From contig JBOHNX010000001.1 in NCBI GenBank assembly GCA_050730875.1, positions 425,972-489,971 of the forward strand: a stretch of 64,000 nucleotides of DNA, read 5' to 3'. Position 1 is the stretch's first letter; each line of letters begins with the position of its first letter. Source of the stretch: Candidatus Saccharimonadales bacterium (GTDB lineage: Bacteria > Patescibacteriota > Saccharimonadia > Saccharimonadales > EFPC-124). This document shows positions 7,429 through 62,260 of the stretch, piece after piece. Below the pieces are notes generated by a model, which searched no databases, was not told the origin of the DNA, and saw only the letters and a list, made by a program, of their open reading frames with translations. Made by a program: the position numbers and the translations under genes.

Positions 7429-9939
7429 TTAGATTCTTACAGCGCCGGCTGCTTTATGCACGGCTGCAACCATTGTTTCTAACAGCTTGTTCACTTCGGC
7501 TGTAGTGAGCGTTCGGTCTTGGTGTTGCAACGTAACACGGAAAGTAACCTGCTTGTGCTCGGTATCGTCTTTACGCTGATAAATATCCAGCGGGGCAACA
7601 GTGACACGCAGGAATTCATCTTTTGAAAGCGCTGTTTCTACGAGCTGTTTCAACTCTGCGTACGGCACGTCGGCTTTTACTTTAAAGCAGACATCTTGGT
7701 CGGTTGCTGGAAAGCGCAGGAGTGGTTGGTAACGATTCTTGATTTGAGAAATAAACAGGCCGCCAAGCCCTAGCTCAAAACCAGCGCAAGTTGCTGGTAG
7801 TTTCAGCTCTTTGCGGACTTTCGCTTGGTACTCGCCCACGACACCGACGATTTCGCCGTTTATTTGGATGTAAGCTGAGCGCTTTGGCTCGAACGGCGCC
7901 AGCACTGCGTAATGCGATTTTTCGCGCATTGGCAGTAGTTTGTAGGCAACGTTCAAGTGGCCCAACAGGTAATCGAGATACTTGGCAGCATGGTAATAAG
8001 ACGCCCCGGTGCTTTTTTCGTCTTTAGCTAGCACCAACGCTAGGCTTTCAAATTCTTCTGGCACGCCTTCGTTATTGAGGTGTTTTTTATTGTGGATTTT
8101 GTTGAGTTCGAACAGTGCAAATTCACCAAAACCAGCTTTAACATTCGGATGAACTTTTTCGAGCAAGCTTGGCGTTAAGCTGAGGCGGTAGTATTGCAAG
8201 TCTGGACTGAGCGCGTTGGTTAATTTAAACGCCTGCTTGGCGTCCTGACCCGCCTTATCCAGAAGATTCGAGTGCACGAAGCTGTAAGTTAAGGCTTCGT
8301 TCGCGCCGGCTTTTGCCAAAACTGTACGTACACGCGACTTAAGCCCCAGCATTGCGTCTTGTGGCGTTGGGGTAATATCGCGCTTTGGTAGTTCCAGCGG
8401 CAAGTGGTCGTAGCCATACAAACGGCCGACTTCTTCTACTACATCTTCAGCGATTTCAATATCGGTTCGCCAGAATGGCGCGGTTACTTTAATGCCGTCT
8501 TTAACCGCACGAGCATCGAACTCGACATTGGTAAGCAAACGAATAATAGCTTCTGTTTTGAGCTTGAGACCCAGGCGGTCGTTAATGAATTCTGCCGAAA
8601 CTACAACTGGCTCGTGCAACGAATTTCGCTCCAACACATCTTTATCAAGGTGTTTATTATCGTGAAGCGGACCGGCTACTTTACCGCCAGCAAGCGTGCG
8701 GACTTCGTGCACTGCTTTAGCAATAACGCGCTGGTTTTGCAGTGGACTTTGGCCTTTTGTAAACCGAGTTACGGCATCGCTGAAAATACCGTGCTCCATG
8801 CTGGTGCGGCGCATGGTGTACATGTCCCAGGTGGCGGCTTCGAGGATGATGTTTTTGGTGTTTTCATCCACTTCGCTATTGGCGCCGCCCATGGCACCAC
8901 CGACACAAAGCAGCTCTTTATCGCTCGCCACCATCATGGCATCGGGGCGCGGCGTAATAGTTTTGCCGTTTAGCAGGATGATTTGCTCGCCTTTTTTGGG
9001 ATGTCGAACGACGAGGGTTGGGGCGCCTTCTTCGCTTAAGTCTTTTACTTTGTCGTAATCGTAGGCGTGAAGCGGCTGGCCAGTTAGGTACATCACGAAG
9101 TTGGTAATATCAACGATGTTGTTAACCGGGCGCATACCAGCGCGCATGAGTTCGACTTGTAGCCAAACCGGGCTTGGTTTAACCGTAATGCCGCTCATAG
9201 CAATGGCGGTAAAGCGCGGTACGAGCTTTGGCAGTTCGTTGACGACTTTAAGCGGTAGCAAGGCGCTGTCTTCGACATCGAGCGAATACTTGCCACCCTT
9301 ACTGTACCAATCTGGACCTTCAAACGCTTTGTGCTGAATACCGGCAATCTCGCGGTACAAGCCCAGTACGCCAAAACCATCTGGACGGTGGGTGAGCATT
9401 TTGTTTTCGATATCGATAATGTAGTCGTTTAGGTGGTACACGTCGGCAAATGGCGTGCCCGGCGCTGCTTCTTCGTCTATTTCTAAAATGCCTTCGTGGT
9501 AATCGCTAATACCGAGTTCTTTGGGGCTGGCCAACATGCCGTGGCTCATTTGGCCGCGGAGTTTGCGTGATTCGAGCACAAACGGAGCGCTATCGAACGT
9601 TTCAGGCACGGTAGTCCCCGGTGGTAACCAAGCAACAAGCATGCCGACTTTAACATTTGGCGCACCGCAAACAACTTGCACATAGCCATGCTCGTCGCGC
9701 GGGACATCCTTAACAACTCCGCCATCATCGATTTTGCATACGTGCAGACGGCTGGCGTCTGGGTGGTCATCGCAGTGCATAACTTTGGCAACTATGACAC
9801 CTTTGTAGCGGGCGCCAAGATCAATCACTTCTTCGATCTCGCCAAGCTGCGCACCAATCTTAGCAACAAGCTCGTCTATAGTTTTGGGATCGAGCTTTAA
9901 ATTTGTGTAATATTTTGCGAGTGCCAGCGTTAGTTTCAT
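7429..9939 (-). CDS. pheT: Phenylalanine--tRNA ligase beta subunit
   Basis: 836 aa. N-terminal tRNA-binding (OB) domain, B3/4, B5 and C-terminal FDX-ACB-like domain. Overlaps pheS by 4 nt. Confidence 0.92.
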   Translation of the reverse strand: MKLTLALAKYYTNLKLDPKTIDELVAKIGAQLGEIEEVIDLGARYKGVIVAKVMHCDDHPDASRLHVCKIDDGGVVKDVPRDEHGYVQVVCGAPNVKVGMLVAWLPPGTTVPETFDSAPFVLESRKLRGQMSHGMLASPKELGISDYHEGILEIDEEAAPGTPFADVYHLNDYIIDIENKMLTHRPDGFGVLGLYREIAGIQHKAFEGPDWYSKGGKYSLDVEDSALLPLKVVNELPKLVPRFTAIAMSGITVKPSPVWLQVELMRAGMRPVNNIVDITNFVMYLTGQPLHAYDYDKVKDLSEEGAPTLVVRHPKKGEQIILLNGKTITPRPDAMMVASDKELLCVGGAMGGANSEVDENTKNIILEAATWDMYTMRRTSMEHGIFSDAVTRFTKGQSPLQNQRVIAKAVHEVRTLAGGKVAGPLHDNKHLDKDVLERNSLHEPVVVSAEFINDRLGLKLKTEAIIRLLTNVEFDARAVKDGIKVTAPFWRTDIEIAEDVVEEVGRLYGYDHLPLELPKRDITPTPQDAMLGLKSRVRTVLAKAGANEALTYSFVHSNLLDKAGQDAKQAFKLTNALSPDLQYYRLSLTPSLLEKVHPNVKAGFGEFALFELNKIHNKKHLNNEGVPEEFESLALVLAKDEKSTGASYYHAAKYLDYLLGHLNVAYKLLPMREKSHYAVLAPFEPKRSAYIQINGEIVGVVGEYQAKVRKELKLPATCAGFELGLGGLFISQIKNRYQPLLRFPATDQDVCFKVKADVPYAELKQLVETALSKDEFLRVTVAPLDIYQRKDDTEHKQVTFRVTLQHQDRTLTTAEVNKLLETMVAAVHKAAGAVRI

Positions 9940-10985
9940 GCAAATTGCCTCAGAAATTCTAGCTTGCCGCTTTCGAAATGGCGAATGTCCTCAATGCCGT
10001 ATTTAATCATCACCATGCGCATAAAGCCCACACCCCATGCAAAACCAGTGTATTCGGTTGGGTCGATACCAGCCATCTTGAGCACGTTAGGGTGGATCAT
10101 GCCGCAGCCGAGTAGCTCAATCCAACCAGAGTAACTACACACATGGCAGCCTTTTTTGTCGCAGAACGGGCAGCTCTGGGCAAATTCGAATGACGGCTCG
10201 GTGAACGGGAAATAAAACGGCTGCGTTTTGACGTCTAATTCTTTTTGGTAATACTCCTGCATGAACGCCTTGAGTGTTGCGATCAGGTGGCCGGCATTGA
10301 CACCTTTATCGACATAAATACCTTCCAGTTGATAAAAGGTGTGTTCGTGGCGAGCGTCGACATCTTCGTTGCGGAATACTCGACCCGGGACAACCACTGC
10401 AATTGGCTTGCCAGCTTCCAGCTGCTTTTTTCCAGCTTTTAACACGCGGTTCTGCATCGTGCTAGTGTGGGCAGGGGCAACAAACGGCACATCATTGGCA
10501 TCCGTTTCGGCTAACGTGAATGTATCAAAATCGTCACGCGCTGGATGACCTTCGGGGAAGTTGAGACTGCTAAACATGTGGTAATCGTCGTCAATTTGGC
10601 GCGATTCAACGGCGGCAAATCCCATGCGATAAAAAATATTGAGCATGATATCGAGCTCGGTCATCAGTGGGTGTGCGCTACCTTTGCTGGCATCCAACAG
10701 TTTTGGTCGGTCGGCTGGAGCGACATTTACATCGAATGGCGCAGTGACGTCGATTGGCGTAATTGCTTCCGATTCCTGCGCGACCTCGTAGCCTTCGACC
10801 AGTGCTTCAAGCTCTTGTTTGAGATCGTTGATAGCCTGTCCAAACTCCTTGCGCTCTTCTACTGGTAGCTTTGGAATTTGAGCGTAGAGATTTTTCAGTT
10901 CGGGAGCTTTTAAGACATCACGCTTTTGCTCAAGCGTCTCGAACTGTTTCTTTAGCTTTGCAGCTACCTTGGCAATATCTTGCAT
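9936..10985 (-). CDS. pheS: Phenylalanine--tRNA ligase alpha subunit
   Basis: 349 aa. Class II motifs (FRNEDVDARHEHTFYQLEG, GWIELLGCGMIHPNVL, AWGVGFMRMVM). Confidence 0.93.
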   Translation of the reverse strand: MQDIAKVAAKLKKQFETLEQKRDVLKAPELKNLYAQIPKLPVEERKEFGQAINDLKQELEALVEGYEVAQESEAITPIDVTAPFDVNVAPADRPKLLDASKGSAHPLMTELDIMLNIFYRMGFAAVESRQIDDDYHMFSSLNFPEGHPARDDFDTFTLAETDANDVPFVAPAHTSTMQNRVLKAGKKQLEAGKPIAVVVPGRVFRNEDVDARHEHTFYQLEGIYVDKGVNAGHLIATLKAFMQEYYQKELDVKTQPFYFPFTEPSFEFAQSCPFCDKKGCHVCSYSGWIELLGCGMIHPNVLKMAGIDPTEYTGFAWGVGFMRMVMIKYGIEDIRHFESGKLEFLRQFA

Positions 10986-11102
10986 AATCGTTGTTACTTT
11001 TTACTATAATAGCTCATTGTTCAAAATCCTAGTGGAAATACTCTGTTAAACGCTTGTTAATGGGATTAAGCTTTTCAAAACCACTTTTTTATGTCAAAAC
11101 TA

Positions 11103-11130
11103 TTGAAATTTAATTTTAATATGCTATAGT
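11103..11130 (+). promoter_or_regulatory. Sigma70-like promoter of cassette C (TTGAAA-16 nt-TATAGT)
   Basis: -35 at 11103-11108, 16-nt spacer, -10 at 11125-11130. About 100 nt upstream of GTG 11230. Confidence 0.4.
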
Positions 11131-11150
11131 TTGCTCTTGTACGACGACGA

Positions 11151-11199
11151 AAGCTCGAGCGAACATTCTGTCATTTGTTTCCAGCTCGAGTTTTTGTTT
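11151..11199 (+). promoter_or_regulatory. Leader stem-loop followed by T-run (terminator/attenuator-like) in cassette C 5' region
   Basis: AAGCTCGAGC (11151-11160) pairs with GCTCGAGTTT (11184-11193) around a 23-nt loop, then TTTTTGTTT. Confidence 0.3.
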
Positions 11200-11229
11200 G
11201 ACCCGCACCTACACAGAAAGAGGTACAAC

Positions 11230-11970
11230 GTGTGCCCGAACCACTCTCAGCCCGACCCGACCCAGCAGTACGAGCACCACGAGCTGCCGGCGTCTCCCAC
11301 CCAGTGGGGGCCGCCACCGCAGCCGGCCCCGCCAGCCAAGTCCCGTGTGGGGCTGATCCTGGGGCTCGTGGGAGGTTTCCTCGCGCTGTTACTCGTCGTC
11401 AGTGGCGGTGTCGCCTTCGCCCTGAGTGGCGGAGACGAGCCGAAGCCGCCCGTCGGTCCGTCGGCCCAGCCGCCGAGCGAGACGCCCAGCGCCTCGCCGA
11501 CGCCGTCCGAGTCACCGACCATGAGCCCGGCGGAACGCGCCGACAGCTACATGAACTCGTGGCTCGACGCGGCCGGCCTCTCCGGCACTCCGGTGGTCCT
11601 CGTGACCACCGACCAGGAGTACACGTGCGGTGACGCCGTCAAGTACAACGGTGACGACGAGAACGCTCGACCTGTCGACCAGTGCGGCGGGAAGTTCTAC
11701 GTCATGGAGGCAGCCTTCTTCGCGAAGGACCTCGCCGGTGTGGACGCCGTGACCACGATGGAGATGTCCTACTACATCCTGGCCAAGAACGGCCTCGACA
11801 TCACCGACGCGACCGCGTCCTGCTTGTCAGGCGCGACCGTGGCCGATGCCGAGGAGCAGTTCCTCTCCCACGAAGACGCAGTCAAGGTGGGCGCGGAGTA
11901 CAACAAGTCGGGTCTCCTGGAGACCTTCGCGCACGGCTACAAGAACGGCGCGAAGTCCTGCTTCGAGTAA
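11230..11970 (+). CDS. Hypothetical membrane-anchored protein, high-G+C cassette C (246 aa): Pro-rich N-terminus, one TM, Cys-containing C-terminal domain
   Basis: ORF track 11131..11970. I prefer GTG 11230 after AGAAAGAGG. Features: PPPQPAPPAK, TM LILGLVGGFLALLLVVSGGVAFAL, PS-rich linker. Spot count 48/60 G+C at 11281-11340. Confidence 0.65.
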   Translation: MCPNHSQPDPTQQYEHHELPASPTQWGPPPQPAPPAKSRVGLILGLVGGFLALLLVVSGGVAFALSGGDEPKPPVGPSAQPPSETPSASPTPSESPTMSPAERADSYMNSWLDAAGLSGTPVVLVTTDQEYTCGDAVKYNGDDENARPVDQCGGKFYVMEAAFFAKDLAGVDAVTTMEMSYYILAKNGLDITDATASCLSGATVADAEEQFLSHEDAVKVGAEYNKSGLLETFAHGYKNGAKSCFE

Positions 11971-11977
11971 CCGACGT

Positions 11978-12006
11978 GAGGGTGGGGGCCCCGCGCCCCC
12001 ACCCTC
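11978..12006 (+). terminator. Perfect 12-bp GC hairpin after cassette C ORF (no U-tract)
   Basis: GAGGGTGGGGGC (11978-11989), loop CCCGC, GCCCCCACCCTC (11995-12006). Starts 8 nt after TAA. Confidence 0.5.
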
Positions 12007-12043
12007 GCACAAACAAAGTCGTCGTACGACTTTCCAAGAATTT

Positions 12044-12082
12044 AAAAGACGCATCTTTTACGGATGCGTCTTCTTTTATTTT
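12044..12082. terminator. Bidirectional intrinsic terminator
   Basis: AAGACGCATC (12046-12055) / GATGCGTCTT (12063-12072), flanked by an A-run and CTTTTATTTT. Downstream of the minus-strand gene ending at 12094. Confidence 0.65.
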
Positions 12083-12093
12083 CTAGCTAAGAC

Positions 12094-12357
12094 TTAAATA
12101 CCTTCAAAAATAAAAAGTACAAATAGCACCAAAGCGATAACCACCATGGTTACAACGCCAACCCAAAAGAGTGAACGGCCGGTGGCTTCTTGTGATTCTT
12201 CTAGCATAACTGGTTTTTGCTCCTCTCCATAGCCTGGGCCGCGGTCTTTCAGGCGCTCGGCAAGATCGGCCGCTACCTTGCTCTGCAGCTGGCTACGCTG
12301 TTCGTTTTGTTTTAAGAATAATGCCATACGAAATCTAGTGTACCATGCATTTTGCAT
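12094..12357 (-). CDS. Hypothetical small protein with C-terminal TM helix
   Basis: 87-aa ORF. C-terminal LFWVGVVTMVVIALVLFVLFIF. Start uncertain (alternative ATG at 12327). Confidence 0.5.
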   Translation of the reverse strand: MQNAWYTRFRMALFLKQNEQRSQLQSKVAADLAERLKDRGPGYGEEQKPVMLEESQEATGRSLFWVGVVTMVVIALVLFVLFIFEGI

Positions 12358-12382
12358 GGATTTTGTTGCGTTTTTTTCGTTT

Positions 12383-13159
12383 TTATTCGTGGATAGCTTG
12401 CGCCTCTAGTACCTCGTGAAGTGAGACTGTCGTGAACGCAACAAGCACAACCGCTACGAGCAACACGAGCGTTTGCCAGTTAGCTAAGCGTGCACTCTCT
12501 TTCTGGTGAATGGTCGGAATAATGTCGGCCGCGGCAATGTAAATAAAGAAGCCAGCAACCAGCGCCAACATGACATCGACCGGTAATTGCAACGCTTCAC
12601 CAAAGCCAAATACCAAGCTTGCACCAATAACTGTTACAGCTGCGCTCGCTATGTTTACGAGCAAGACTTTCTTGCGTTTCATACCTTTGCTTAACAGCAA
12701 TCCAAAGTCGCCGATTTCTTGTGGGATTTCGTGCGCCGCAATGGCGAGCGTTGCCACAATACCAGTTGCGGGGTTCACCAAAAAGGCCGCACCTATTGCC
12801 AAACCATCAATAAAGTTGTGCAAGGTATCGCCAATGACAATCAGCGAGCGGTTGGCTTGGTCCTGACCACTCTCGTGTTCGTGATGGTGATGGAACCAAC
12901 GCAGGAATCGCTCCGAGGCGAAAAAGAACAAAAAGCCGACAAGCGTCCATTGCAGGATGGTACGGACTTCTCCTTCTTCGAAAGCTTCTGGCAGCAAATC
13001 GAAGAAGCTCGCCGCAAGCAGCGCCCCTGCCGCAAACGGCACAGCAATCTTTTGTAGCAGCATTGCCCCGCGCTTACCGTAAAGCAGGTAAATGCCGCCG
13101 ATTAATGAAAAAACACTGCCAATTAAGGCAAAAAATATAACGTGAAACCATGTACTCAT
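12383..13159 (-). CDS. ZIP family metal cation transporter
   Basis: 258 aa, about 8 TM. His-rich loop HHHHEHESG. HNFIDGLAIG and AHEIPQEIGDF motifs. Confidence 0.88.
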   Translation of the reverse strand: MSTWFHVIFFALIGSVFSLIGGIYLLYGKRGAMLLQKIAVPFAAGALLAASFFDLLPEAFEEGEVRTILQWTLVGFLFFFASERFLRWFHHHHEHESGQDQANRSLIVIGDTLHNFIDGLAIGAAFLVNPATGIVATLAIAAHEIPQEIGDFGLLLSKGMKRKKVLLVNIASAAVTVIGASLVFGFGEALQLPVDVMLALVAGFFIYIAAADIIPTIHQKESARLANWQTLVLLVAVVLVAFTTVSLHEVLEAQAIHE

Positions 13160-16402: not shown

Positions 16403-16930
16403 TTATCGTAAAGTGAATATCTTTCGTCCATAAACAAGCAGTACCGCGGCTACTGCACAGGCAAAACCACCGAGTACATCGATAGGCGTATGCACCAGTG
16501 CAACAACCCTGCCGGTGGCCACCAAAACACTTAGACCAAGCAGTGTTAATGCGAGTGGCCGATTTTTGGTACTCGCCCACACAATGGCTGTAATCGTAAA
16601 AACAAGCAGCGCGTGATCGGACGGAAAGCCGGGGTTATTAAGATAAGCGGCCCTGGGCGCTTCACCAAGCTCCTGGAACGGCCGTTCGCCCTGATACAGC
16701 AAACTAATAAGCTTTGCCAAGAAGAGGGCAACTAGGCCAGCAAAAACGCCTCGCGCGATGCGCTCATAGCGGACCGTGGATGGCAACAAAAGCATTGCAA
16801 CGCCGCCAATCAATACAATTGGTATTACCAACCAGTCGGCGAGGATACGAATAAGTACGTCTTCGAACATGACTATATAAAGCATACCGCTGCCAGCCCG
16901 CTTTGCAAACGGGTATAGCATTCCTGCCAC
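16403..16930 (-). CDS. PAP2 family phosphatase
   Basis: Motifs YQGERPF, FPSDH, GRVVALVHTPIDVLGG. The start is GTG 16930 or ATG 16921, and both lie inside a palindrome arm. Confidence 0.8.
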   Translation of the reverse strand: MAGMLYPFAKRAGSGMLYIVMFEDVLIRILADWLVIPIVLIGGVAMLLLPSTVRYERIARGVFAGLVALFLAKLISLLYQGERPFQELGEAPRAAYLNNPGFPSDHALLVFTITAIVWASTKNRPLALTLLGLSVLVATGRVVALVHTPIDVLGGFACAVAAVLLVYGRKIFTLR

Positions 16931-17070
16931 AAAACATGTCTTTTGGGTGATGAACCGGACGAGTAAGAATAGGTCAGACTGAGTGAAGCATATCTGGATA
17001 CGGTGAACGAAGGCTGGCTTATTCTGGCCGTCCGGGCGCAGCCAAAAGGGCGTGTTTTGTGGCAGGAATG
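16919..17070. repeat. About 150-bp imperfect palindrome spanning the divergent PAP2/LssY-like gene starts
   Basis: Perfect 18-bp arms CATTCCTGCCACAAAACA (16919-16936) / TGTTTTGTGGCAGGAATG (17053-17070). Pairing continues inward (TTTTGG/CCAAAA, CCGGACG..AGAATA / TATTCT..CGTCCGG). Confidence 0.7.
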
Positions 17071-17077
17071 CTATATA

Positions 17078-17959
17078 ATGGCTACGATGCTTCCTTATGT
17101 CTGGGTACAGCTTAAGCGACTGCTGATTTTTGCGCTTGGCATCATACTCGCTTGGTTCACCGCTTTTGGATTTTTCCCTGCAGTCGATAAACGTCTGCCA
17201 TTTTTGGTAGCTTTGTTAGTGACCTATTGTTTTTTGGCGTACGTTGGCATTCCGGCGCTGCTGCGTATTCGGCATCTCACCCATCCGCCGCGCCATGTCC
17301 CAACACGAGCAATAACCCGCGACGGTTGGGCGCTGGACCCAATTAATCTGGCAGTTTTGGCTAAAAACGAAAAAGAATTTATCTGGGCGATGGAGAAAGC
17401 TGGTTGGCGTGTGGCCGACCCGCCAACCCTCTTTAATACAATTCACTTTTGCTGGGCATTTGTGCTTAATCGTCCCTACCCGACTGCACCTTTTAGCAGC
17501 TTGTATGTTTTTGGCCGCAAGCAAGACATAGGGTTTCAGATCCCGCTTGCTGATAGCCCGCGCCATCGCCACCATGTTCGTTTTTGGCGTGTTGGCTCAA
17601 CAGTGCTCGAGGACGAACACGAACACCAGAACTTTTGGCGCAAGCTACTAAAAAAATTCTTACGAAAAGAAAAACAAGTTTGGGTGGGCGCTGCCATTTT
17701 AGACCACGGCATTAACGTGCGGCGTCGTAATTTGCAAATTACGCATCGGGTGCATGGCAATACCGTGCTCGAACGCGACTACGTTGTTGAGTCGCTACAA
17801 AAAGCAAACGTCTTAAAAGACACCGCGACTATAAAAGCTGGCGAACCGCTACGCTCGCGACACCAAAGTTTTGGCGAAACCATAATTTCGGATGGCAACG
17901 TAAAGCTCTGCGAGCTTAAGCGCCAGTTTTTGCCACCAATCCACCCGTTAGAAGACTAA
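17078..17959 (+). CDS. Membrane protein, LssY C-terminal-like domain (tentative)
   Basis: ORF track 17003..17959. I prefer ATG 17078. Two N-terminal TM helices, then a soluble domain with SPRHRHHVRFW. Family call from memory only. Confidence 0.5.
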   Translation: MATMLPYVWVQLKRLLIFALGIILAWFTAFGFFPAVDKRLPFLVALLVTYCFLAYVGIPALLRIRHLTHPPRHVPTRAITRDGWALDPINLAVLAKNEKEFIWAMEKAGWRVADPPTLFNTIHFCWAFVLNRPYPTAPFSSLYVFGRKQDIGFQIPLADSPRHRHHVRFWRVGSTVLEDEHEHQNFWRKLLKKFLRKEKQVWVGAAILDHGINVRRRNLQITHRVHGNTVLERDYVVESLQKANVLKDTATIKAGEPLRSRHQSFGETIISDGNVKLCELKRQFLPPIHPLED

Positions 17960-27724: not shown

Positions 27725-29071
27725 TTATTGCAGAAGGTTCTCAATCGACGTACCTTCGTCGTACAAAAGCAAATCGTCCGAGTGCATACTCCATGTATGC
27801 TGGATTGGTGCGATAATTTTCCAGGCCGCCAGCACTTCATCGTTCGATGTAAACAGGCTGTGATCCGAGCGAATAGCATCGAGCAACACTTGTTCGTACG
27901 CATCGGGCAAGGCAGTAAAGTGGTCTTCGTAGGTAAAGCGGAGCGGCACGTGTTCGAGCTGTCGTTCGTAACCTGGACGTTTTGCCCACAGCGCGACTTC
28001 TACGCCTTCGCGCGGTTGCACACGCAGTACTAGTTGGTTGGCTTCGCGGGCGTCTTCTTGTTTGTAATGAATACGAATTTCGGTCGATTTTTCTTTGAGT
28101 GCTTTGCCGGTTGCAAGTCGAAATTGCACACCTTCCCAGCGTGGATCGCGCGATTCTAACGTTAGGGCTGTGAAGGTTTCGGTAGTTGAGCCAGGATTTT
28201 GTACCTCTTCACTATAGCCACGATATTGCCCACGGCGGGCATCGCCAGCCAATTGCAAACTACGCAGGGCGGCAGCTCGTTTTTTTGGTACATTTGTCCA
28301 GTCACCGTACGCAGGCATCTCCATGAGCGTTAATGCCGCGAGCTGCAGCAAGTGGCTTTGCACAATGTCACGCAATGCACCTGTTTGCTCGTAAAAAACG
28401 GCACGACCTTCGATACCGATTTTTTCACTCGCAATAATATCTATCCGGTCAATAAAGTCTTTGTTCCAAGTGTGCCGGAACAGCGAATTGCTGCTACGAA
28501 ATACCAAAATGTTTTGCGCCATTTCTTTGGCGAGGTAATGGTCGATTCGGTACACCTGTTCTTCGTCGAAAAACTTTTTGGTATGGTCCACTAGGTCTTC
28601 GGCCGATGCTAAATCGGTGCCAAACGGCTTTTCAAGCAAAAGTTTAGTTTGGGTGCCACGCGCCCGCTCAGCGTTGCCCATGTTCTCGATGATTGGCTGC
28701 GAAACTTGCGGCGGCACAGAAAGATAAAACAGACGCTGAGCGGCAGCGCTGAAGTTCGACTCCAGATCACCAAGATACGCAGCTAATTTCTTATAATCAG
28801 CAGGATCCGCAAGATCCATCTGATACATTTTTAAGCACTGTGCCAGTTCACTACCTTTATCCAGAACATCACTTGCCTTAAGCTCACGTCGGGTTACGCC
28901 GACAATGCGAAAATCCTCTGGCAGCTCACCCGCCTTGGCAATCGCCTGGATAGCCGGCAGCAATTTGCGCCGCGCTAAATCACCAGAAATACCCACAATA
29001 ACTAAGATGGTTGGCTGACTACCGCTCGCCATAGCCTTACTGTAGTTGCTACTTGCTCGGTTGTCGAGCAC
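27725..29071 (-). CDS. zwf: Glucose-6-phosphate dehydrogenase
   Basis: GISGDLARRKLLPA, EKPFGTDLASA, RIDHYLAKE motifs. True start may be ATG 29032. Confidence 0.9.
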   Translation of the reverse strand: MLDNRASSNYSKAMASGSQPTILVIVGISGDLARRKLLPAIQAIAKAGELPEDFRIVGVTRRELKASDVLDKGSELAQCLKMYQMDLADPADYKKLAAYLGDLESNFSAAAQRLFYLSVPPQVSQPIIENMGNAERARGTQTKLLLEKPFGTDLASAEDLVDHTKKFFDEEQVYRIDHYLAKEMAQNILVFRSSNSLFRHTWNKDFIDRIDIIASEKIGIEGRAVFYEQTGALRDIVQSHLLQLAALTLMEMPAYGDWTNVPKKRAAALRSLQLAGDARRGQYRGYSEEVQNPGSTTETFTALTLESRDPRWEGVQFRLATGKALKEKSTEIRIHYKQEDAREANQLVLRVQPREGVEVALWAKRPGYERQLEHVPLRFTYEDHFTALPDAYEQVLLDAIRSDHSLFTSNDEVLAAWKIIAPIQHTWSMHSDDLLLYDEGTSIENLLQ

Positions 29072-31077: not shown

Positions 31078-31152
31078 TGGCGAGTGGCCAAGCGGTAAGG
31101 CGCCTGACTCTGGATCAGGAGATCGTAGGTTCGAATCCTACCTCGCCAGCCA
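31078..31152 (+). tRNA. tRNA-Gln (anticodon CTG)
   Basis: Hand fold: acceptor TGGCGAG/CTCGCCA, anticodon stem CCTGA/TCAGG with loop CTCTGGA, T arm GTAGG-TTCGAAT-CCTAC, encoded CCA. Confidence 0.88.
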
Positions 31153-31203: not shown

Positions 31204-31226
31204 GTCTGAATTTTGATCTGTTGCAC

Positions 31227-31239
31227 GGGTTCGAATCCC
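31227..31239 (+). other. tRNA T-arm-like fragment (GGGTTCGAATCCC), not part of a foldable tRNA
   Basis: The 13-mer has T-loop consensus TTCGAAT flanked by GGG/CCC. I could not fold the flanks into acceptor or anticodon arms. Confidence 0.35.
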
Positions 31240-31308
31240 TCCTATATGCACATGCCTGAAAAAGTTGAAGAAAACCTTAAAAGCCACGAATTCTCTTAAG
31301 AAGTGGAG

Positions 31309-31336
31309 AGGCCCCCGGCTGTGTAGCCGGGGGCCT
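31309..31336 (-). terminator. Perfect 12-bp GC hairpin downstream of cassette D ORF
   Basis: AGGCCCCCGGCT gtgt AGCCGGGGGCCT. A second hairpin CAGACGC/GCGTCTG lies at 31374-31392, nearer the stop. Confidence 0.5.
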
Positions 31337-31403
31337 GGTAGTAGTGGATGAGCACTCGGGCCCAGGGGTTGGTCAGACGCTCAGGGCGTCTGGCGGCGGC
31401 GGG

Positions 31404-31712
31404 TCACTTCCACTGGATGTAGGACGCCGTGGCCCGGGAGCTGCTGTTGCAGAACCGGGTATCCCACCACGAGACGTAGCGGGGGAACCACGGCCCATAC
31501 ACCGTGTACGTGAAGTGGGAACCGATCACCTTGCACTGGACGGCGAGACGGGTCTCGCGGCCTTCGTAACTGCAACCGCCACCACCGGAGTTCCAGTAGA
31601 CCTCGGCCCGACAGGTATGAGCCTGGGCCGGCGTAGCGCCGAAGGCCATGGTACCACCCACGAGAGCGAATGACATCAGGGCGGTGGCGACGAACTTCTT
31701 GGTGCGTCTCAC
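31404..31712 (-). CDS. Small secreted Cys-containing protein, high-G+C cassette D (102 aa)
   Basis: Track ORF 31404..31775. I prefer GTG 31710-31712 after GGAAGGGA. Signal peptide RRTKKFVATALMSFALVGGTMAFGATPAQA|HT. Mature part has 4 Cys and is Trp/Tyr-rich. Spot count 38/60 G+C at 31501-31560. Confidence 0.65.
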   Translation of the reverse strand: MRRTKKFVATALMSFALVGGTMAFGATPAQAHTCRAEVYWNSGGGGCSYEGRETRLAVQCKVIGSHFTYTVYGPWFPRYVSWWDTRFCNSSSRATASYIQWK

Positions 31713-31782
31713 AGGAGTTCCCTTCCACTGGGGGGTTGCATGGGTATGGCCAGCGCGCAGCCGACGTACGCCCATGCAAATT

Positions 31783-31798
31783 AGCGACGATCGTCGCT
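31783..31798. promoter_or_regulatory. Perfect 16-bp palindrome in cassette D leader (operator-like)
   Basis: AGCGACGATCGTCGCT lies 11-26 nt downstream of the predicted -10 on the minus strand. Confidence 0.3.
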
Positions 31799-31808
31799 CG
31801 TGCAGTCA

Positions 31809-31837
31809 AATATATGTATTAAAAGGAATGATGTCAA
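31809..31837 (-). promoter_or_regulatory. Sigma70-like promoter of cassette D (TTGACA-17 nt-TATATT)
   Basis: Minus strand: -35 TTGACA (31832-31837), 17-nt spacer, -10 TATATT (31809-31814). Confidence 0.4.
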
Positions 31838-31845
31838 TACTAATA

Positions 31846-59132: not shown

Positions 59133-59930
59133 CTACCCCTCTGACGGAGTAACACGAATTTGTCTTTGCTCAAGGGAGTGCATATCAATACCGCTTATTA
59201 TAGTCTCAGTTTCGTTATATAGTCGGTCAAGTATGTTGATATTTTTCTTTATAGTGGACATGTGGACTTTTAAATAATTCGGCTCATATCTCACGCCATT
59301 AAAGTGCTTGTGAAAGAACTTAATCGCATCGTTATACTCAGCATTAATTGGTTTCTTTGTGGGTGTCTTTGTGAACTGACCAAGCAAATTGACTACGCCT
59401 GAATGCTTCTTTGTTTTTAACTCAACTAGCGGGCTTGTAGCTAGCCGTGCTTTCAGTAAGTTCTCCGCCGCAGTCGTAGCAAGTGCAAGTGTCGTTCGGC
59501 GCGAAGTCTTCTGAGTAATTTTAGCCTGGTCAAGAAACTCTTTGCCCAAGTCTTGATAACCTCTGGCAGTCTCTGCGCCGTAAATGAAGCTGAAACTTAT
59601 ACTCCACTTGTTTTCTCCTTGAGAGATAAGAGTAATATGCCCAAAATTTAGGTCGTCAGGGTCTCTTTCCGCCAAGTGTAAATCTTCAATATCATTGTAG
59701 GTTATGCTTTCCCCGATTTTAACGGCTCTTTTGTATCTACCAATAATCTTTCCCTTAACCTCACCGTTTAGCCTTACTTTATATGACCCGTCCATACCAA
59801 GTATCACCTGCGCAGCCCTTAGCACAACCGGCAATGTTACCTCACCTCGCTTATTGCGTTCTAGAATTTCTGGATGCACCCATATTTTCATCGTTTGGTC
59901 ATATACGGCTTGCGCCATTTCTTGGTTCAT
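59133..59930 (-). CDS. Hypothetical protein (265 aa), possible C-terminal HEPN-like helical domain
   Basis: AT-rich gene. The C-terminal half has AAENLLKARL...KKHSGVVNLL...FFHKHFNGVRYEPNY, reminiscent of HEPN helices with H and R..Y positions. Weak, by eye only. Confidence 0.55.
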   Translation of the reverse strand: MNQEMAQAVYDQTMKIWVHPEILERNKRGEVTLPVVLRAAQVILGMDGSYKVRLNGEVKGKIIGRYKRAVKIGESITYNDIEDLHLAERDPDDLNFGHITLISQGENKWSISFSFIYGAETARGYQDLGKEFLDQAKITQKTSRRTTLALATTAAENLLKARLATSPLVELKTKKHSGVVNLLGQFTKTPTKKPINAEYNDAIKFFHKHFNGVRYEPNYLKVHMSTIKKNINILDRLYNETETIISGIDMHSLEQRQIRVTPSEG

Positions 59931-60022: not shown

Positions 60023-62260
60023 ATGGAAGACCAGAAAAACAGACGCTCTTTATTTGCGAAGCTAACATCGTGGGCTGATATGAAGCTTCTTTCTCTGCGC
60101 AATAAGATTAAATACCGTATAGTTGGCAAATTATCTTCAATACATATAGTTATCGCAATTTTTATTGGACTAACAGTGCTAATTATTGTGGCAAAACGGA
60201 GTTGGTTTGGTAATCCACAGTTGCCGTCTGATATTGCCGAGCTTTACTTTGGTGCCGGAGCGGTCACAGGCGCAATGCTAGCAATAGTCTTTGCATTTAG
60301 CTCGCAGCTTGTATCAAGGGCGTCAGAAGCCTTACCTGCTCGTTACTTTAATATATTTGCAAGGGATACGAGACTGGACACATTCTACATTATTCTAGGT
60401 CTAATTACGGTCCTTGAGTTCACACTTGGCGTGGTGTCGTTAAATAGTTCTGGGCAAATAAATACGCTGCTGTTACGGCTGGGAATTTGGCTTGTATTAG
60501 TAACAGTTATTTTATTGTATTTCTCTTATACACGGCTTATTACCCTTTTAAGTCATGAGCACCAAGTGGCATGGTTGGCAAAATATCACATGAGCCAAAT
60601 TAAGGAGCTGACTTACTTAACAAAGCGCATGGCGCGAGCATCGCAGAGAGGCTTCAAAAACTTAACTGATAATGAAAAGTTAATTATTGAGGGGAATATG
60701 TATGAGCCAATGCAGGCTCAGATAAAAACCATCAACGACAATCTGGATGGCGTAATTGAGCTTTACTTCACTTACAAAAATAAGGGCGATGATTATGCAG
60801 CTCATAATTACATACATGTAGCTTTTGGGATGGTAATGTCCTACACACTATCACGACAAAAGAACTCACTGTTAAAAATTAATCCAGAGGCTGGCTTAAC
60901 TCCTGAAAGCAGTCTTTCAGCATTCTTGCAAACTAGCTTTGAGAAATTAAAAATTATATGGGATAAGGCGCTCGCCGAAAACGATGTTTATGCTATAAGA
61001 AAGTATTTGCGGGATGTTCAGGGATTAGTAAGAGTAAGCTTGATGGTTGAGCATCCCCAATCATCTCATGAAAATCCTGCCTACTTCACTGCATACTACA
61101 ATTTTAGCCAGTTGATTAAAGAAAGTACAAAAGCCAAGAATGTTGATGCACTTTTTGAAATTGCATCCGTTTTAGAGCAAGTCACTGAAATCGCCGTTAC
61201 CAAAAAGCATAGAACCGATGCACTTGAAGCCGTACTAAAAGATATCCAGTCCATCTGTATTGCGACAGCAGGAGGCGATGATGACATGAGTTCGGTAACT
61301 CATAATGTAATTAAAAATATGTTAACGATTTGCAACCGGATACTTACACAAAATGAGATAGATGACCATCGTTTACGGACTATGCAACAGATTGTGCCAA
61401 TGTGTCTGGTGCTCTATATCTTAGGCACAAAAAACAGCCTTACTGATATTGCCGTCACACATTTCGGTGACAATATATTTGCGATGGCTACACATAATAT
61501 GGATGAGCCTCCTACGAAAAAACAAATTCGTAAAGTTATTCAAACATCTAAATTTGTTATTAGCATCCTTCAAAAGTTAGCTTCAATCGCTAACGGCAAT
61601 AGGTATGAAACGCAATCAATGAACCGGTCAATCATGATAATGGCTCATACGCTCACCAAAATTCTGAATGACGAACTTGCTACCGAGCAACAGGCACAAG
61701 ACATACGCTGGATATTAAATGACTTAGCACAACTGCCTGGTTCGTTTCCAGCCCCAGACAAGACTAAGAGCCTAAATGATATTGAAGATTTCATTGACCA
61801 GCTTATACAAGCTGGCGTTATTGCCGTACAAGCTAACCAAATAGATGTTGCTACTAAAATATTTGATGAAATCCATGATTATTTACATAAGATGTTGACT
61901 GACAAAAATAGTAATGTTGAGGTCCACGAAATCTTACACGCAGTAAATGACACAAAGTTAATTGGTGCGACAGCCAGAAAACTAAGAAAGCAAAAGTTAC
62001 AGCAGCATGTAGCGAATAGGATTAGGGAGTTTGAAACCGCATACCATGCAAAGTATTATCCAGGCTATCCCAAAGGATATGACCCCAAGGTAGGGTACAC
62101 TCCCTTACCTCAGATGCTCAGGCAAGAGCGGGATGACTATTCATTCGGCTATCACGGTAGCGGACTTCCAGAATACTTTCATGATGCTAAGGGTGTGTTT
62201 TTACAATCATACACACAGGATGACCTAGATAATTTTGAAGATTATATCTGGCAGCACTAA
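60023..62260 (+). CDS. Hypothetical large membrane protein (745 aa): 4 N-terminal TM helices plus about 560-aa alpha-helical cytoplasmic domain
   Basis: AT-rich (spot count 18/60 G+C at 60121-60180). TM segments around aa 40-57, 73-96, 121-141, 150-172. No catalytic motif recognised. Confidence 0.65.
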   Translation: MEDQKNRRSLFAKLTSWADMKLLSLRNKIKYRIVGKLSSIHIVIAIFIGLTVLIIVAKRSWFGNPQLPSDIAELYFGAGAVTGAMLAIVFAFSSQLVSRASEALPARYFNIFARDTRLDTFYIILGLITVLEFTLGVVSLNSSGQINTLLLRLGIWLVLVTVILLYFSYTRLITLLSHEHQVAWLAKYHMSQIKELTYLTKRMARASQRGFKNLTDNEKLIIEGNMYEPMQAQIKTINDNLDGVIELYFTYKNKGDDYAAHNYIHVAFGMVMSYTLSRQKNSLLKINPEAGLTPESSLSAFLQTSFEKLKIIWDKALAENDVYAIRKYLRDVQGLVRVSLMVEHPQSSHENPAYFTAYYNFSQLIKESTKAKNVDALFEIASVLEQVTEIAVTKKHRTDALEAVLKDIQSICIATAGGDDDMSSVTHNVIKNMLTICNRILTQNEIDDHRLRTMQQIVPMCLVLYILGTKNSLTDIAVTHFGDNIFAMATHNMDEPPTKKQIRKVIQTSKFVISILQKLASIANGNRYETQSMNRSIMIMAHTLTKILNDELATEQQAQDIRWILNDLAQLPGSFPAPDKTKSLNDIEDFIDQLIQAGVIAVQANQIDVATKIFDEIHDYLHKMLTDKNSNVEVHEILHAVNDTKLIGATARKLRKQKLQQHVANRIREFETAYHAKYYPGYPKGYDPKVGYTPLPQMLRQERDDYSFGYHGSGLPEYFHDAKGVFLQSYTQDDLDNFEDYIWQH

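Follow-up and report, generated by a model that had tools for sequence, protein, structure and literature searches.

Saccharibacteria, members of the Candidate Phyla Radiation (CPR), have been described as obligate epibionts of Actinobacteria (PMC10973392). Horizontal transfer into CPR genomes is documented by 84 events in 43 CPR metagenome-assembled genomes (MAGs), which span 518-5,730 bp and in which about half of the open reading frames (ORFs) are unannotated (PMC10031880), and mammal-associated Saccharibacteria have gained the arginine deiminase system by transfer, which illustrates how gene gain shapes the relationship with the host (PMC8764695). Here we describe a 64-kb stretch of DNA (the window, mean G+C 0.492) from a Candidatus Saccharimonadales bacterium in which about 0.8 kb of high-G+C DNA, called island C below, lies between pheS and the gene of a small membrane protein and carries a single gene for a protein of 246 amino acids (aa). 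With moderate confidence, we favor the explanation that island C is a recent insert, probably of actinobacterial or host origin, that brought in one gene for a bitopic envelope protein.

Very few environmental Saccharibacteria have a known host, and the molecules by which these cells attach are poorly defined. The 246-aa gene is of interest in this setting because it encodes a candidate interface protein and because its composition hints at the lineage of the host.

Island C, its gene and its signals

Island C is the strongest G+C island of the window, with a maximum of about 0.74. In steps of 200 nucleotides (nt), G+C goes from 0.32 (11000-11199) to 0.68-0.745 (11200-11599) and falls again to 0.405 (12000-12199), and within the island it amounts to 62-75% per 200-nt window. 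The 246-aa ORF has a G+C of 0.67 and a G+C at third codon positions (GC3) of 0.88, compared with 0.46-0.53 and 0.43-0.55, respectively, in host genes (n=8); the GC3 of the neighboring genes is about 0.53. A first-pass annotation, made from the sequence before any database search, had reported a 246-aa ORF from GTG 11230, a G+C count of 48/60 at 11281-11340 and overlapping frames at 11232-11633 and 11682-12086. The ORF is confirmed, with its stop codon TAA at 11968-11970, a recount gives the same 48/60, and both overlapping frames are present (133-134 aa).

Three-base periodicity, expressed as G+C at the first, second and third codon positions (GC1/GC2/GC3 = 0.64/0.49/0.88), is seen solely in the 246-aa frame. 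From base composition, we estimate that an open frame of 246 codons would arise by chance at about 70% G+C with a frequency of around 1% per frame. Prodigal predicts the identical 246-aa product on a second assembly made by Logan. The NCBI model of this gene, MGH7196600.1, is longer (277 aa) and starts at TTG 11137, just past the -10 box in the AT-rich leader. Because this model crosses the downstream edge of the promoter and the AT-rich leader, we judge it to be too long, and GTG 11230 with its Shine-Dalgarno sequence appears to be the more credible start.

The features of the locus are given below by their positions in the window.

9936-10985, minus strand: pheS, the left host flank, divergent from the 246-aa ORF
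11103-11130, plus strand: host-type sigma-70 promoter, TTGAAA-16-TGcTATAGT, 10/12 consensus positions plus a TG extended -10
11146-11198, plus strand: 5' leader stem-loop (GACGAAAGCUCGAGCGAAC...GUUUCCAGCUCGAGUUUUUGUU) in the centroid fold, about 8 nt past the predicted transcript start
11201-12008, strand not applicable: high-G+C island (island C), defined by composition, edges good to about 10 nt, taken as imported DNA
11217-11223, plus strand: Shine-Dalgarno sequence AAAGAGG, read from the sequence, 6 nt ahead of the GTG
GTG 11230 to TAA 11968-11970, plus strand: coding sequence of the 246-aa protein, from the ORF list, codon-position G+C and Prodigal
11976-12008, plus strand: GC-rich hairpin, 14-bp stem with a perfect 12-bp core, 5-nt loop, without a T-run
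12015-12033, plus strand: small palindrome AAAGTCGTcgtACGACTTT, 19 nt, from inverted-repeat and folding analysis
12046-12082, both strands: bidirectional intrinsic terminator of the host, 11-bp stem with T-runs on both strands (site 12046-12072, plus strand, CTTTTATTTT)
12094-12357, minus strand: gene for an 87-aa small membrane protein, the right host flank, convergent with the 246-aa ORF

The promoter at 11103-11130 sits in AT-rich DNA and is the sole promoter-like site within 10900-12400. On both strands of the window (128 kb), the pattern TTGAMA-N15-18-TATANT has two matches, one ahead of island C and the other ahead of a second high-G+C island, island B, that is described below. The entire leader folds at -26 kcal/mol with a modest z of -2.0, and its stem-loop might act as a stabilizer of the 5' end of the mRNA or as an attenuator. 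Sites of the GGAG/GAGG type are found in about half of the 23 called host genes, and the Shine-Dalgarno sequence of the 246-aa gene is therefore expected to be usable in the recipient.

Past the stop codon, the GC-rich hairpin is followed by the 19-nt palindrome and then by a hairpin with a T-run. The perfect 12-bp GC hairpin of the first-pass annotation lies at 11978-11989/11995-12006, and the complete structure, a donor-style terminator, folds at -31.6 kcal/mol (z = -4.8). The terminator at 12046-12082 is common to the 246-aa ORF and the 87-aa gene on the minus strand. A scan of 10900-12400 with Rfam gave sub-threshold matches only, such as one to Phe_leader on the minus strand, located at the terminator, whose 25 bits fall short of the gathering score of 55.

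Short inverted repeats also bracket island C. GTCGTCGTAC (12018-12027) and CAAACAAA (12010-12017) are the reverse complements of GTACGACGAC (11139-11148) and TTTGTTTG (11193-11200), respectively. Taken together, the right-hand 18 nt CAAACAAAGTCGTCGTAC are the reverse complement of the left-hand GTACGACGAC plus TTTGTTTG, and the left blocks are split by the 44-nt leader hairpin. This arrangement could be a split palindrome, a pairing between the 5' and 3' parts of the mRNA, or chance. It is only weakly above the chance level, with an equal score in 8/300 shuffles and three perfect 10-bp inverted repeats in 1.1 kb, and on these grounds the proposal that it represents transposon ends or a split palindrome was dropped. 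Another inverted repeat, between 11130-11158 and 27745-27773, was attributed to chance, its second arm being located inside the zwf coding region.

Related loci and the predicted product

An NCBI protein named PheS, encoded on a 556-kb contig of a Candidatus Saccharimonadales MAG, and the PheS of the window are 100% identical. The nearest relatives of this PheS in GTDB contigs, taken as one genome per species, are all Saccharibacteria with at most 72% identity, and the closest in a set of 5.8 billion protein clusters reach up to 77%. The genome is therefore that of an environmental saccharibacterium (CPR) without a sequenced close relative. The most telling comparison is with a Logan contig (L087) whose PheS is 74% identical and which retains the gene order on both sides, with RmuC (86% identity), MIP (62%), MsrA (52%), ZIP (75%) and the small membrane protein (66%), then pheS and pheT. 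The 87-aa protein of the window has a C-terminal transmembrane (TM) helix and belongs to no Pfam family. Its 66% identical counterpart in L087 is a 78-aa product, equally placed beside pheS, and we conclude that this is a small conserved membrane protein of Saccharibacteria.

The spacer between pheS and the small-protein gene is 255 bp long in L087 and 1108 bp long in the window. A tblastn search of the L087 locus with the 246-aa ORF found no match even at E <= 10, and the gene was found at 0/80 other Saccharibacteria pheS loci. Judged by this comparison of gene order and spacer length, island C is an insertion. The foreign origin claimed by the first-pass annotation is borne out by the unameliorated composition together with the absence of the gene from the syntenic relative and the 80 further loci; best matches in host relatives with shared synteny would have spoken against it, and no match in host relatives was found. 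Since the composition of island C is wholly unameliorated, the transfer is recent. Of the properties by which genomic islets are recognized, deviant composition and absence in syntenic relatives are both seen here, while a homologue in a donor lineage and marks of mobility are not. No tRNA lies near the 246-aa ORF, and its called neighbors are housekeeping genes.

The 246-aa protein had been described as a Pro/Gln-rich head, one TM helix, a Pro/Ser/Thr linker and a C-terminal domain with 4 Cys, and these parts are found as described. The N-terminal head (aa 1-38) holds 11 Pro and 5 Gln among its first 37 residues, including PPPQPAPPAK, as well as an extra Cys (Cys2). A lone hydrophobic segment follows at aa 39-65, with a Kyte-Doolittle value of 2.64 for the 19-mer at aa 40 (VGLILGLVGGFLALLLVVS), and is flanked by K36 and R38 ahead and by D69/E70 behind. 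The linker, at about aa 66-100, is of the Pro/Ser/Thr/Glu type, with 11 Pro and 7 Ser among the 34 residues of aa 67-100. In the C-terminal domain (aa ~100-246), Cys133, 152, 198 and 244 occur in YTCGD, QCGGKFY, SCLSG and KSCFE, and the region of aa 98-246 is acidic, with an isoelectric point of 4.3 and a net charge of -14. Neither a lipobox nor an LPXTG motif is present in the 246-aa protein.

Hydropathy and the distribution of charges uphold an architecture of TM helix and ectodomain. The protein has the single TM-length segment with positive charge on its N-terminal side that is expected of a signal anchor, as judged by a hydropathy rule rather than by a trained predictor. By the positive-inside rule, the product would be a bitopic membrane protein with its N terminus inside and its C terminus outside (type II, signal-anchored), and its C-terminal domain would be expected to be exposed at the cell surface.

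This pattern of composition, signals and predicted topology suggests the following history. About 0.8 kb of high-G+C DNA would have entered the divergent spacer between pheS and the gene string of small protein, ZIP and msrA. Its donor would most probably be an actinobacterium, and plausibly the one that the epibiont lives on. The insert would have carried one complete gene with its own Shine-Dalgarno sequence, GTG start and GC-rich terminator hairpin. We expect that this gene is now transcribed from the host-type sigma-70 promoter about 100 nt upstream, by way of the leader stem-loop, and that transcription stops at the donor hairpin and then at the bidirectional terminator of the host. In the product, the 38-aa Pro/Gln tail would be cytoplasmic, and one TM helix and a Pro/Ser/Thr spacer of about 35 aa, which should be long enough for crossing the wall, would lead to an acidic domain of about 147 aa outside the cell, with its four Cys probably in two disulfides. 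The likeliest role, if there is any, would be at the epibiont-host interface, where a host-derived envelope domain could serve in attachment or recognition.

Donor, second island and alternative explanations

Several results weigh against this explanation, among them those of homology searches. A word-indexed search of the 5.8 billion clustered proteins recovered the 246-aa protein itself only, and an exhaustive phmmer search of 1.84 billion representatives, with the last 151 aa as the query, recovered the protein itself and two repeat proteins. The latter, P0002 (6489 aa, with many tandem repeats) and P0003 (828 aa), were rejected as homologues, their scores being short matches summed over 4-20 repeats. 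Neither tblastn searches of phage (50,697) and plasmid (72,556) records nor a scan of IMG/VR viral contigs found anything, and Pfam, NCBIfam, PHROGs and PADLOC returned nothing meaningful for the 246-aa protein. In the PDB, phmmer gave a marginal match over 99 residues to the N-terminal domain of spider silk (spidroin), a five-helix bundle (E = 0.009, 19.5 bits), which is probably due to chance. AlphaFold2 run on the C-terminal domain without an alignment assigned no fold, with a predicted local distance difference test (pLDDT) score of 37 and a predicted template modeling score (pTM) of 0.27.

The comparison with relatives also has its adverse side. Alignment of the intergenic DNA of the window and L087 gives scores equal to those of shuffles, and because this DNA is too diverged to align, with the nearest relative at just 74% identity in PheS, the approximate limits of the island (about 11201 and 12008) come from composition alone. 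The insert shows no target-site duplication, and neither an integrase nor a transposase accompanies it. The second assembly (Logan, SRR27067773) has 0 mismatches over 20,741 bp spanning both junctions, and the two assemblies may stem from the same reads. A literature search on this run, the locus tag and the protein accession yielded nothing.

Among the sets searched, the 246-aa gene is an orphan, present in one known genome. The absence of a relative among the approximately 15 billion predicted proteins behind the two large sets points to a rapidly evolving diversity of envelope proteins that is still unsampled. One specific assignment was also considered and rejected. The motif order CG...C...FY...F[TA]HG...C is reminiscent of the putative neutral zinc metallopeptidases of the YpfJ type (PF04228), but Pfam gave no match to the 246-aa protein at E <= 10, BLASTP against Escherichia coli YpfJ gave E = 0.8 in the TM/linker region only, and the zinc-binding motif HExxH is absent from all 246 aa.

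The first-pass annotation had called the protein actinobacterial in style and foreign. The foreign part of this label stands; the actinobacterial part is not shown, since no homologue exists in any searched collection and phylogenetic placement is therefore impossible. No donor can be named, and other high-G+C phyla are also possible, which counts further against the favored explanation. The GTG start, the GC3 close to 0.9, the GC hairpin that serves as terminator and the Pro-rich bitopic layout are typical of Actinobacteria without being exclusive to them. An actinobacterial donor is nonetheless plausible, and the label rests on codon style, on the epibiont lifestyle of Saccharibacteria and on a homologue of the second island in a Micromonospora-like contig.

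This second island is located about 20 kb to the right of the first.

31290-31840, minus strand: second high-GC island (island B), G+C 0.64, GC3 0.77
31404-31775, minus strand: ORF of island B, with a probable true start at GTG 31712 and a 102-aa protein

The island B protein has a signal peptide, ending in ATPAQA before HT, and 4 Cys in its mature part. Its gene is preceded by a near-consensus promoter, TTGACA-17-TATATT, and by a leader with a perfect 16-nt palindrome (AGCGACGATCGTCGCT), and is followed by a GC hairpin terminator. A homologue, P0126, is 77% identical in protein and 80% identical in DNA, including the leader and the terminator, and lies on a contig of 68% G+C where a neighboring gene shares a cluster (>=90% identity) with a Micromonospora protein. 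A second homologue, P0127, is 72% identical. The gene for tRNA-Gln (31078-31152) adjoins island B, and between the two lies a fragment resembling a tRNA T-arm (GCACGGGTTCGAATCCCTCC, 31218-31245, plus strand), for which neither ARAGORN nor Rfam calls a tRNA. This fragment may be a relic of tRNA-targeted integration beside island B.

In a small mid-GC genome, a homologue of the island B gene is found at 5880-6420 of contig L084 (ENA ERZ14708565, 1.13 Mb, 53.6% G+C), where it again forms a high-GC islet, with a GC3 of 0.87 vs 0.55 in the neighbors, and adjoins three HTH_17 paralogues. The AT-rich promoter of this islet is homologous to that of island B (67% identity). Its leader palindrome (GAACGATGaaCATCGTTC) occupies the same place and differs in sequence, a change that looks compensatory. 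The MetRS of L084 is no nearer to the mycobacterial enzyme than to those of Aquifex or Thermus, and by this measure L084 is probably not an actinobacterium.

The strongest competitor, although an unlikely one, is that island C is a neutral passenger, an accidental and recent capture of environmental or host DNA, by an epibiont that naturally scavenges DNA, that has no role and is on course to decay, with a promoter that already belonged to the pheS spacer. The wholly unameliorated composition agrees with this, as do the restriction of the gene to one known genome, the lack of a paralogue or conserved partner, and a function that is unassignable. Yet the frame of 246 codons is unbroken, the Shine-Dalgarno sequence, start and terminator have all been kept, and the gene is oriented directly behind a near-consensus promoter that is one of only two matches to the pattern in 128 kb. 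These features (intact frame, signals and orientation) fall short of proving selection. Even as a neutral passenger, the gene would document ongoing flow of DNA into a reduced CPR genome.

The favored explanation, a recent insert with one envelope-protein gene, can also be extended. In a speculative form that we hold to be rather doubtful, a captured host envelope protein would be shown on the surface of the epibiont in order to bind or mimic the host wall, and together with island B it would be a fingerprint of the host. If true, this would provide a direct genetic fingerprint of the host of an uncultured, soil-type member of the Saccharimonadales. A bolder version would have promoter-leader-gene-terminator units for exported proteins circulating between actinomycetes and ultra-small epibionts.

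It is also conceivable, though improbable, that the hydrophobic segment acts as a signal peptide and is cleaved off, the acidic domain then being released instead of anchored. Signal peptides are cleaved by the small-X-small rule, and the sequence V-A-F-A before L-S, right past the hydrophobic core (cleavage between AFA and LS past aa 65), satisfies this rule. On the other hand, the n-region of 38 aa would be unusually long and is Pro-rich, there is no twin-arginine motif, and the hydrophobic stretch of 27 aa has the length of a TM helix and not that of a signal peptide.

We give still less weight to the idea that a phage or mobile element, and not the host chromosome directly, delivered island C as a moron-like unit of promoter, leader, gene and terminator. 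This idea draws on the layout of promoter, gene and terminator at island C, on the L084 islet with its homologous promoter, changed palindrome and HTH_17 neighbors, and on a likeness between the upstream regions of islands C (11101-11150) and B (31791-31839). These regions are alike beyond the hexamers (TATTGAMAT…TTTTAATA…TATAnT…TG[TC]ACGA(N)CGACGA), from the -35 box to the TG[TC]ACGA(N)CGACGA about 10 nt past the -10 box, and their alignment score of 26 exceeds that of shuffles (15.8 +/- 2.2) and is reached by 1/500 of them. The same score, however, also arose once by chance among 21 unrelated host upstream regions. The upstream region of island C has no similarity to the L084 version, the shared pattern is absent from 84 other loci, and a metagenome scan with a generalized pattern gave 41 matches, 0 of which had a rise in G+C downstream. 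On these results, a promoter-leader module common to islands C and B finds no support as a general element. The searches of PHROGs, phage genomes, IMG/VR and plasmids, which found no match, further argue against a mobile unit, as do the housekeeping neighbors and the absence of an integrase among the called genes.

Misassembly is unlikely. A chimera or contaminant, in which actinobacterial reads were misjoined into a Saccharibacteria contig, is suggested by the metagenomic source of the genome and by the completely different composition of the insert, but it would need two junctions inside one intergenic spacer, both of which an independent assembler reproduces without a mismatch in the 20,741 bp, and would have to fit the gene exactly behind a host promoter and ahead of a host terminator; we regard it as very improbable. 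Least credible of all is an open frame that arose by chance in non-coding DNA of high G+C, since the long shadow ORFs that such DNA gives (two of 133-134 aa here) and the lack of a homologue are outweighed by a periodicity confined to the 246-aa frame, a Shine-Dalgarno sequence at the proper distance and a protein-like architecture in which a single TM helix is joined to a linker of low complexity.

Other features of the window and comparison with known systems

Three other regions of the window were noted. Its longest inverted repeat (16914-16947 / 17042-17075, 34 nt, 88% complementary) has arms placed symmetrically upstream of a divergent pair of genes, for a PAP2 phosphatase (16403-16921, minus strand) and an LssY_C protein (17078-17959, plus strand), with a MarR gene just downstream. 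Each arm holds GTGGCAGGAATGCTATA running into the start codon, and the repeat looks like a mirrored promoter/operator pair. Between 59000 and 62300, G+C drops to 0.385-0.41 against the mean of 0.49, and two ORFs there, 59133-59930 (minus strand, 265 aa) and 60023-62260 (plus strand, 745 aa), have no Pfam match; this stretch may be another foreign segment, of opposite compositional sign. Finally, a bump in G+C at 48 kb (0.595) is caused by a 6-phosphogluconolactonase gene (PF01182, 47962-48690, minus strand). Because its GC3 is just 0.56, this bump is unlike islands C and B, and represents an effect of amino acid composition or an old acquisition rather than a recent import of high-GC DNA.

Within the window, island B is the closest parallel to island C. 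The two share the recipient genome, a high GC3 (0.77-0.88), a near-consensus promoter in AT-rich DNA, a palindrome or hairpin in the leader, a terminator hairpin rich in G+C and a small Cys-containing product that is predicted to be exported. Island B has homologues (77% identical in the Micromonospora-like contig and 72% identical in a different small genome of middling G+C) and a neighboring tRNA-Gln gene, whereas island C has neither homologues nor a tRNA neighbor.

Among described systems, island C resembles phage morons in being a self-contained expression unit with a G+C unlike that of its surroundings, and differs from them in lacking both a prophage context and a phage homologue. It does not appear to be an integron cassette, as there is no integrase among the called neighbors and, by eye, no R''/L''-L'/R' attC architecture 3' of the gene. 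The protein is similar to actinobacterial bitopic membrane proteins, which are not known to form a curated family, in its layout, GTG start, GC3 near 0.9 and GC hairpin free of a T-run. This is a likeness of style only, with no sequence homology detected.

The arginine deiminase system of mammal-associated Saccharibacteria (PMC8764695) is a metabolic operon whose function is known and backed by experiment, whereas island C holds a single orphan gene for a predicted envelope protein. The nearest match in kind is provided by the short transfers in CPR MAGs (PMC10031880), with which island C shares a sub-kilobase foreign fragment, a hypothetical protein and a bacterial host as the presumed source. 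Those transfers were defined by matches between genomes, while island C is called from its composition and from the empty site in a relative. A small, horizontally acquired orphan gene in the reduced genome of an epibiont is thus of a kind already known, and ordinary gene transfer accounts for it.

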